In this document: piece by piece, positions 3,114 to 10,429 of the stretch
Numbering within the stretch: the first letter of the stretch is position 1
Layout of the letters: the number at the start of each line of letters is the position of its first letter
Assembly (NCBI GenBank): GCA_016196885.1
Contig: JACPWU010000014.1
Coordinates: forward strand, 1-10,429
Origin: Chlamydiota bacterium
GTDB taxonomy: Bacteria > Auribacterota > JACPWU01
Reading direction: 5' to 3'
Length of the DNA: 10,429 bases
Notes under the pieces: generated by a model
Database searches by the model: none
What the model was told of the DNA's origin: nothing
The model's input: only the letters and a program-made list of their open reading frames with translations
Program-made: the position numbers and the translations under genes

Positions 3114-3374
3114 TTATGGGTTTTTTAGGACTTCATCGTGGTTGCCAACCAGTCTCAAATAAATCGTGTCCTTATCCATTTCAAAGCTCATTCGATAGTG
3201 GATGTCTACACGAGCTTCCCAAAGATCAGGGGTTCCTTGGATTTTTCTCGTGCGTAGGGACGGATGCATTGGATTTTCTGAGAGTTGCTTAACTTGACGT
3301 TTTGTTTTCTTTTGGATGTGCTGGGGGAGTTGAAGAAAAGATTTGTCAAAGCCTTTATAGTAGTGAACTTTCAC
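3114..3374 (-). CDS. RelE/ParE-superfamily type II toxin (86 aa)
   Basis: The size and motif layout are typical of RelE/ParE plasmid-stabilisation toxins: FxKxFxxLPxxIQKK...LSENPxHPSL..RKIQGTPDLWEARVDIHYRMSF....IYLRLVGNHDEV. A GTG start overlaps the upstream ORF stop by 4 nt (GTGA at 3374..3371), which is classic antitoxin-toxin coupling. Confidence 0.75.
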   Translation of the reverse strand: MKVHYYKGFDKSFLQLPQHIQKKTKRQVKQLSENPMHPSLRTRKIQGTPDLWEARVDIHYRMSFEMDKDTIYLRLVGNHDEVLKNP

Positions 3375-3619
3375 GATGCTTTCTTGATTGACTTGAAGAG
3401 GCCTTTGACTGTTCCATCACCTAGGATTTCACCTTTTTTCTTAGCTTCGTCTATCTCTTTCTCTTTTCTTTGCCATTCTTTTGTCCAGAAATAGGCTTGC
3501 TCTGGATCAATGATATGCTTCATTTTGAGGTAGCGGGCAAAGTCTAGGATTTCAGAAAATTCCTTGGGGTCCAGGCTTTTAACGGTGCTTAATAGTTCTA
3601 GTCTCATTGTGTTCGTCAT
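3371..3619 (-). CDS. Putative cognate antitoxin (82 aa)
   Basis: A small acidic/basic ORF lies immediately upstream of the RelE-like gene and overlaps it by 4 nt. The N-terminal segment KEFSEILDFARYLKMK resembles DUF2281-type antitoxin N-termini. The assignment rests mainly on position. Confidence 0.6.
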   Translation of the reverse strand: MTNTMRLELLSTVKSLDPKEFSEILDFARYLKMKHIIDPEQAYFWTKEWQRKEKEIDEAKKKGEILGDGTVKGLFKSIKKAS

Positions 3620-9654: not shown

Positions 9655-10148
9655 TCTGACTGAGGTCAGAGTACGTCAGCTCTCCGATGTCGCATCGGAG
9701 ACATCGCACCCGGGCGAAGCCCTCTTTCCTCTTTTGCTCGACATAGCCCAAGACTCATCCCACGCCCGTGGCTCGCTTGATTTTCTCTGCTAAGAGATTT
9801 CGCTCGTTCAGTTTTAAATGCTCCGCTTTCAGTGACTCGCGACTCTAAAAAAATTCATTGGGCAACTCCAGGTAAAAAAAATTTTGGATTCGATGTGAAA
9901 GGGGTTTTTAGGAGTTAGATTTTTTCAAGATCATATTTTGTGATTTTAAATCAGATGTGTTTTTGAACAGGCGAGTCACTAACTTCACTTGTCCTAAAAA
10001 CTTTTCCGAGACAAAACTTTTAGCAAACCCTTTTGCTTTTCGTGCTTTTCCCCCGCGTGCACTCCGAGGCTTCTTTCGGAGTGTCGGCCACGTCGCTCTC
10101 TCGCTGCCACTGGCTTTGCCCTCTTCTCTCGCCTCCCCTAATCTCCTT

Positions 10149-10289
10149 TCCTTCCCCCTTCTTAATCCTATTCCTTACCACTCTCATTTTTGGGAAGTTC
10201 GAGAAGGGGCCCAAAAATGAGAGTGCACTAGGGGTGTAGAGGATAGGATGGGGGTAGGCCGATCGCAGTGAGGCCGCAAGGGGGAAGGA
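10149..10289. repeat. Long composite inverted repeat: pyrimidine-rich left arm, purine-rich right arm
   Basis: A perfect 16-bp inverted repeat, CACTCTCATTTTTGGG (10179-10194) / CCCAAAAATGAGAGTG (10210-10225), with a 15-nt loop. It is enclosed by a perfect 12-bp inverted repeat, TCCTTCCCCCTT (10149-10160) / AAGGGGGAAGGA (10278-10289). Additional imperfect pairing is possible, for example CCTATTCCTT (10167-10176) with AGAGGATAGG (10238-10247). Confidence 0.7.
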
Positions 10290-10429
10290 TCGAGGTAGGA
10301 CGGCCAGTTGCCCAGCCGCCCCCTCACAGATCCCGACGTGCGAAATTATCGCATCGGGCTCTTCAGAGATACTCGCCTACGCATTTAGGCCAGTTGTCAG
10401 AGCGTGTAGATGGCTTGTGGTTTTGTCCG
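10289..10429 (-). mobile_element. Probable 3'-terminal part of a group II intron (end of domain IV, domain V, domain VI). The intron body and reverse-transcriptase ORF would lie beyond the right edge.
   Basis: Minus strand 10361..10329 reads GAGCCCGATGCGATAATTTCGCACGTCGGGATC. It aligns with the classical domain V, for example yeast ai5-gamma GAGCCGUAUGCGAUGAAAGUCGCACGUACGGUUC. Shared features are the AGC triad, a 9-bp lower helix with compensatory changes, a 2-nt AC bulge on the 3' strand, and a 4-bp upper helix. It is followed by a domain VI-like hairpin, GAGGGGGCGGC (10325..10315) / GCCGTCCTACCTC (10304..10292), with a bulged A at 10296. That A lies 7 nt before a terminal ...GAT, so the intron would end in AY at about 10289. 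Caveats: the G of the triad faces A rather than U, and the loop is UAAUU rather than GNRA. Confidence 0.5.

Follow-up and report, generated by a model that had tools for sequence, protein, structure and literature searches.

The right edge of the window (the whole 10,429-nt stretch of DNA analyzed here, which makes up all of contig C18 in a MAG of 66 contigs and 2.23 Mb that is 94% complete) very probably holds the 3'-terminal part of a mobile group II intron of bacterial type that occupies at least three sites in the MAG and whose interior lies outside the bin. The original prediction of a group II intron 3' end on the minus strand at this position is upheld by a covariance model match, by covariation, by homology that extends beyond domain V, by a boundary at position 10289 that recurs in three contigs, and by the host gene that is restored when a sister copy, flanked by contigs C64 and C13, is removed.

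Re-reading of the minus strand from 10429 to 10289 places domains V and VI of a group II intron in the last 141 nt of the window (Table 1). Group II introns have as their domain V a hairpin of ~34 nt that is marked by a triad, AGC or CGC, and by an AY bulge of 2 nt (PMC4424553). In the hairpin at 10361 to 10329, the lower helix has nine positions and includes the AGC triad (10360 to 10358), and the 3' strand carries a 2-nt bulge, A10339-C10338. Its upper helix consists of 4 pairs (GCGA/UCGC) and closes a UAAUU pentaloop, and G10359 stands opposite A10331, where a G-U pair is usual. The 33-nt hairpin, the triad, and the AC bulge had been described in advance, and that description was accurate to the base. 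Domain VI has a GCAA tetraloop at 10311 to 10308 and a bulged U10297-A10296. The predicted branch point is A10296, at a distance of 7 nt from U10289, with which the intron ends (...CCUCGAU, terminal GAU); a bulged A 7 to 8 nt from the 3' end and an intron end in AY are the features by which a group II terminus is recognized. The spacing that had been claimed for domain VI, 3 nt after domain V and with its bulged A 7 nt upstream of a terminal AU, was the same on re-reading.

Table 1. Features of the intron terminus and its 3' exon in the window, and complete related introns cited in the text
Feature	Position in window	Strand	Basis or description
Putative RT/maturase ORF end: RTKPQAIYTL (10 codons) and TGA stop (10399-10397)	10397..10429	-	Inferred, frame 0
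Domain IV 3' part and linker to domain V	10362..10396	-	Alignment to L039 and L041
Domain V hairpin, 33 nt	10361..10329	-	Sequence, covariance-model alignment, fold
Domain V-VI linker, 3 nt	10328-10326	-	Sequence and fold
Domain VI hairpin, 34 nt, 14-bp helix	10325..10292	-	Covariance-model alignment, fold, covariation
Intron terminal GAU; 3' splice site between 10289 and 10288	10289..10291	-	Identity boundary common to C13 and C44
3' exon long imperfect hairpin, from exon base +1	10140..10288	-	Fold and inverted repeat
Relative L041 (metagenome contig Ga0233405_10001095)			Complete intron; RT split into two ORFs
Relative L039 (metagenome contig Ga0316190_10084380)			Complete intron; open 434-aa frame
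Relative L136			Complete intron; open 434-aa frame in RT position
Relative L019 (Desulfobacteraceae MAG contig)			Among the closest complete copies

The resemblance to known introns does not stop at the two hairpins. From position ~10391 on, the window tail aligns with the corresponding part of two complete introns, L039 and L041, at 86 to 87% identity. The putative ORF that runs into the window stops 35 nt before domain V, and the corresponding distance is 29 to 34 nt in L039, L041, and L136. The ORF of L039 ends in ...RTKQLSLRFT*, beside RTKPQAIYTL* in the window, a stretch of 10 codons that is too short for statistics; the window peptide is probably the last codons of the intron RT gene. 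The same segment had also been singled out as richer in G+C than the remainder of the window. This rise is real (56.7% in 10289 to 10429 versus 44.6% in the rest), but the intron is not alone in showing it, since G+C amounts to 57.6% in the 3' exon next to it (10051 to 10288).

The 81-nt stretch that comprises domains V and VI folds with -41.2 kcal/mol (z = -4.1), a value that none of 200 dinucleotide shuffles equaled. The Rfam model RF00029 (Intron_gpII) matches positions 10363 to 10289 over its full length (model positions 1 to 77) with 39.4 bits and an E value of 3.1e-6 when run in E-value mode, and in a genome-wide search the window match has an E value of 2.6e-6. The covariance model check that had been proposed for the minus strand is therefore significant (E of 3e-6), though the match is 0.6 bit under the curated gathering cutoff of 40 bits, and for this reason a default Rfam scan of the window at the gathering cutoff gave no match. 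In the cmscan alignment, two pairs are marked as compensated relative to the Rfam RF00029 consensus.

Covariation was assessed for domains V and VI in a set of 9 sequences. Across these sequences, 99.6% of the cells in the two helices are paired and 6 pairs vary on both sides. In domain VI, 99.2% of the cells are paired and 5 of the 14 pairs vary on both sides. None of 500 shuffles reached the covariation score and 5 of 500 reached the count of pairs changed on both sides, while helix registers slid from the proposed one pair in only 36 to 48% of cells. Because the search pattern fixed the domain V stems, the independent covariation evidence is that of domain VI and the loop-closing pair.

Relatives were collected by requiring the domain V stems of the window exactly and leaving the seven inner bases free. 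This pattern occurs in 23 stretches from GTDB and, among metagenomes, in at least 120; the public stretches that carry it number at least 144. The inner 7 nt among the matches listed are GUAGUUC (110), GGAAAGC (16), GUAAUUC (5), and other variants (13). The inner segment of the window, AUAAUUU, keeps the UAAUU loop of GUAAUUC and has an A-U closing pair in place of G-C, which is a compensated change; the same pentaloop is found in L039, L019, and L021. Closest among the matches listed are L041, L039, and L136, which are 83 to 87% identical to the window over the last 92 to 105 nt. These three are complete introns of 1983 to 2084 nt that match RF02005 with 97 to 127 bits, and all five of the close relatives that retain their 5' part match this model (97 to 135 bits). 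The 434-aa ORF of L039 contains RVT_1 and GIIM and matches TIGR04416 (group II intron RT/maturase) with 364 bits versus a cutoff of 300; no endonuclease domain was found in it. An actinobacterial member with the same domain V stems (L010, on a Microlunatus MAG contig) has a 531-aa ORF with RVT_1 only and no HNH.

The original prediction allowed that the G-A opposition in the triad helix and the non-GNRA loop could mark a divergent or decaying copy. This is not supported, given the recurrence of the G/A opposition and of a 7-nt inner segment in the at least 144 public stretches, many of which have an ORF of at least 250 codons that ends just upstream of domain V. The non-GNRA loop likewise recurs in the lineage, and the one change at the loop closure of the window copy, G-C to A-U, is compensated. 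Compared at the level of sequence, both peculiarities are traits of the lineage. They also account for the borderline RF00029 score and for the scores of most other members of the lineage, which are under the cutoff as well. The complete introns L041, L039, L136, L010, and L063 have no RF00029 match at the gathering cutoff despite strong RF02005 matches, and since even complete members are missed, the RF00029 cutoff under-calls this lineage. Default Rfam annotation thus systematically misses the 3' ends of these introns.

When the 141-nt tail was used as the query, 40 relatives gave matches at the level of domain V only, and the 79 genomes of the same phylum that were searched contained no close copy, which fits a horizontal arrival. 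Exact-pattern scans of viral contigs gave no match. Two of the relatives have unusual arrangements. In a Syntrophomonadaceae MAG contig (L014, JAAYQE010000024.1), positions ~130 to 839 appear to be an ORF-less intron of ~0.7 kb from the same lineage, with an RF02005 match at 202 to 458, a domain V that starts at 767, and the intron end at 839. The 2235-nt contig of L039 begins with the last 48 nt of a second copy of the intron. A spacer of 28 nt separates these from the GUGCG of the complete copy and recurs directly after the 3' end of the latter; either two introns lie in tandem with 28 nt between them or the assembly is wrapped.

The end of the window coincides with a repeat in the MAG. The last 140 to 141 nt of contig C18 are identical to the left end of contig C13 and to the right end of contig C44, and the identity starts exactly at 10289, the predicted last base of the intron. 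The 3' exons of the three contigs start with C, U, and U, respectively, and have nothing further in common. Many other contig ends in the MAG share 139 to 141 bases in the same manner, which is the signature of a de Bruijn assembler with k = 141 that cuts contigs at repeat branches. The intron is thus a repeat with at least three insertion sites on which the assembly broke, and therefore each flanking contig stops 141 nt inside it. The identity over 141 nt is in part a by-product of the assembler, in that three flanks enter one 141-mer and the copies may differ further in; the source is a metagenome, and the three flanks could belong to different strains. Position 10289 can be marked as a true element boundary.

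A collapsed intron interior of ~1.7 to 2.0 kb would not exceed what appears to be the size floor of the bin, in which the smallest contig is 2061 nt, or could have been lost in binning through its higher coverage. A profile search of the whole MAG found no RVT_1 and no GIIM match, and a whole-genome search with RF02005 gave no match. Since the MAG contains no RT, maturase, or complete D1 to D4, the full-length, RT-bearing state of the window copy is unproven. For the intron type found in the window, the MAG has two 5' junctions versus three 3' junctions.

A second group II intron tail is present in the MAG. It scores 40 bits on RF00029 and occurs at C6:49-137 (+), C24:104913-105001 (-), and C25:51-139 (+), that is, in at least three copies at contig ends, and all three of its 3' exons start with G. 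Its domain V also has a G/A opposition, together with an AU bulge, and its domain VI is longer. The MAG therefore carries at least two group II intron families, and these introns account for the stop of the window contig and of at least seven other contig ends. No 5' end of the second family was found in the MAG. The contig ends C11_R, C2_R, C15_L, C49_R, and C3_R were considered as a second intron 5' end and were rejected as an unrelated repeat with IS-like termini, on which the assembly also broke. These ends share the termini GTATTTAAAAGTGTGTCCTTTTA in both orientations, like inverted insertion-sequence ends.

The 5' end of the window-type intron was found on contigs C64 and C7, whose ends have 141 bases in common (...UCUCCUCU/GUGCGCCAAG...); the exon-intron junction reads ...UUCUCCUCU/GUGCGCCAAGAGAAGCUUGGCG.... 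This 5' end, GUGCGCC..., aligns with the 5' ends of related complete introns, relative to which the C64/C7 piece carries a 24-nt hairpin insertion. The piece gives a 3'-truncated RF02005 match of 20.8 bits (E of 0.004), to be read against a cutoff of 49 bits and against an assembled length of 132 nt that reaches model positions 1 to 66 only.

The pairing of this 5' end with the window-type tail follows from a gene that the two interrupt. The 5' exon on C64 (its right end, up to position 50908) encodes 7TM-GAF-HisKA, and the 3' exon on C13 (from position 141) encodes HATPase_c in the same phase as the C64 frame. Joined at the predicted sites, the two exons encode a 635-aa 7TM-GAF-HisKA-HATPase_c histidine kinase. 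Uninterrupted kinases from related genomes align with it and show no gap at the junction (L161 is 37% identical over 312 aa). Because C64 and C13 flank one kinase gene, the GUGCG end belongs with the window-type tail, and the gapless kinase that their exons rebuild shows that both splice sites were predicted exactly. Removal of this sister copy at its predicted boundaries restores a continuous host sequence. The intron splits the kinase between its HisKA and ATPase domains and lies in the sense orientation, so the kinase is intact only if the intron splices. A group II intron inside a conserved gene is uncommon in bacteria.

These observations bear on several other readings of the window tail. 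One is that the copy in the window has been truncated to a 3' remnant or belongs to an ORF-less form. It would then have domains V and VI, perhaps with a shortened domain IV, but no RT gene of its own, and would either depend on an RT supplied in trans or be inert. We consider this unlikely. Truncated group II copies are common in bacteria, neither RVT_1 nor GIIM is found in the whole MAG, an ORF-less relative of ~0.7 kb (L014) appears to exist, and only two 5' junctions are matched to the three 3' junctions. However, a stop codon and a tail peptide are present where the RT ORF ends in full-length relatives, the sister copy between C64 and C13 lies in a gene and starts and stops exactly at splice sites, and an interior contig of ~1.7 to 2.0 kb would fall at or below the 2061-nt floor, so that the RT is expected to be absent from the MAG whether or not the copy is truncated.

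Far less probable is an assembly artifact in which the terminal 141 nt come from the intron of another organism and were joined to the contig only through a shared k-mer, in which case no intron would adjoin the mobile element. The contig does end inside a repeat that is common to several contigs, but it extends a full k-mer past the junction, so k-mers that span 10288/10289 must exist in the reads. The junction is also exactly at the predicted splice site, as it is in C13 and C44, and the helix of the 3'-exon hairpin is extended by a candidate 5' exon, C7, from the same bin. The probability that the tail consists of two chance hairpins, or is an unrelated structured RNA of the mobile element, is close to nil. 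An RF00029 score under the gathering threshold, the mismatch in the domain V triad helix, and the lack of a GNRA loop would be in keeping with it, but it is already refuted by the RF00029 E value of 3e-6, by homology to complete introns that extends past the hairpins, by the covariation of the helices, and by the exact excision of the sister copy from the kinase gene. We therefore retain the 3' terminus of a mobile group II intron as the best explanation of 10289 to 10429.

The DNA that surrounds this intron terminus encodes a 912-aa DnaG-type primase protein, two tyrosine recombinases, an XRE-type repressor, and a 1016-aa protein with no Pfam match. Together with a toxin-antitoxin pair, this content is that of a mobile element, in agreement with the plasmid-like element to which the window had been assigned. 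The toxin-antitoxin pair, at 3114 to 3619 on the minus strand between the recombinases and the 1016-aa ORF, consists of an 86-aa ParE-like/Gp49-like toxin and an 82-aa DUF2281-like partner that overlap by 4 nt. The intron lies in the 1.1-kb noncoding stretch of the element, inside no gene, and reads toward the 3' end of the repressor gene. Closure of the element as a circle through the intron was considered and rejected, as C18 at its left end runs on within the 1016-aa ORF and has no end sequence in common with another contig.

The 3' exon in the window forms a long imperfect hairpin (10288 to 10140; -59.9 kcal/mol, z = -4.4), one arm of which is rich in pyrimidines and the other in purines, around a perfect core of 16 bp (10179 to 10194 with 10210 to 10225). 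The intron is thus situated at the base of a long hairpin or within it. Weak matches to miRNA families at 10149 to 10259 were dismissed, since they merely reflect this long hairpin. When the right end of C7 (C7:88600-88671) is placed as the 5' exon, the helix gains ~22 bp. The resulting stabilization of -31.7 kcal/mol compares with -19.8 ± 6.3 kcal/mol in random controls that keep the last 15 bases of C7, and 6 of 400 controls reach it. This modeled fold suggests, at about the 2% level, that C7 may be the missing 5' exon and that the intron may be situated inside one arm of a hairpin of ~200 nt. The C7 end has RadC and NYN-domain genes after housekeeping genes, a gene order that would fit the edge of an integrated element. 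When the 3'-exon region was compared with the genome by BLAST, no partner contig emerged.

A bolder proposal is that the intron is targeted into the hairpin arm, coupling its splicing or mobility to replication or recombination of the element, and that, separately, it is a natural catalytic-core variant; we regard this proposal as a long shot. If it were true, presence or excision of the intron would change how the hairpin folds, as single-stranded DNA or as RNA, in the noncoding control region of the element. A lineage that lacks both the triad-helix G-U and the GNRA loop of domain V would, if not yet described structurally, be a natural variant of the catalytic core.

By analogy with the complete relatives, an RT/maturase likely adjoins the window, and the whole element should be ~2.0 to 2.1 kb with an RT/maturase of ~430 aa that has no endonuclease domain. 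The anatomy of the terminus, its exact boundaries, its copy number of at least three, and its membership in the lineage are demonstrated by the analysis, whereas we infer the presence of the RT beyond the contig end, and likewise splicing and mobility activity. The standard group II splicing chemistry is expected here (PMC4424553). The intron RNA would fold, with domain V binding the catalytic metal ions; the 2'-OH of A10296 would attack the 5' splice site to form a lariat, and the 5' exon would then attack after U10289. A particle of lariat and RT would subsequently reverse-splice into new DNA sites through base pairing with the 5'-exon motif ...UUCUCCUCU. Both known 5' exons (C64 and C7) end in UUCUCCUCU, so the target would be chosen mainly by the 5' exon. 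In En-less group II introns, priming is expected from replication intermediates rather than from endonuclease cleavage.

Compared with the canonical domain V (yeast ai5-gamma and the RF00029 consensus), the window hairpin has the same AGC triad, the same 9-bp lower helix, the same 2-nt AY bulge on the 3' strand, a similar upper helix, and the same placement 3 nt before domain VI. In contrast, it is 33 rather than 34 nt long, it has a G/A opposition rather than a G-U wobble, and it has a pentaloop rather than a GNRA tetraloop. Its closest complete relatives, of the RF02005 type (group-II-D1D4-6), are L041, L039, L136, and L019, whose domain V stems are identical to those of the window, G/A opposition included. 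In the window and in these relatives the pentaloop is UAAUU or UAGUU, the layout of domain VI is common to all of them (a GYAA loop, a bulged UA, and an end in ...CUACCNNNAY), and the distance from the stop codon to domain V is 29 to 35 nt throughout. The 5' end GUGCGCCAAG is common to the copies of this genome (C64/C7) and the D1D4-6 relatives. The window copy differs from these relatives in its loop-closing pair, which is A-U rather than G-C, and in its sequence, which is only 83 to 87% identical to theirs over the last 92 to 105 nt.

The En-less bacterial intron classes are C, D, E, F, and the later "g" varieties (PMC4424553, PMC3552965). Set beside these, the protein of L039 has RT and maturase only, and that of L010 has RVT_1 only. 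Membership in class D (RmInt1-like) was considered and rejected: the intron on pSymA of S. meliloti, which is presumably RmInt1 and of class D, matches RF01999 and not RF02005, and its RT is 36% identical to that of L039. Class C (IIC) introns insert just downstream of a terminator-like or attC hairpin in the 5' exon. This class was also rejected, although by a weak test, as the C64 copy is inside a coding sequence without a preceding hairpin and the hairpin of the window is in the 3' exon. The best plasmid-borne RTs are no more than 45% identical, and the PDB matches (LtrA, T.el4h, and GsI-IIC) are all distant. For the Rfam subtype group-II-D1D4-6, the literature that we found consists of Rfam release papers only. 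Nothing here alters existing knowledge of group II introns. Judging from its sequence, the window tail is a new copy of a known kind of bacterial group II intron, probably of the D1D4-6 type, whose members related to it have an En-less RT.
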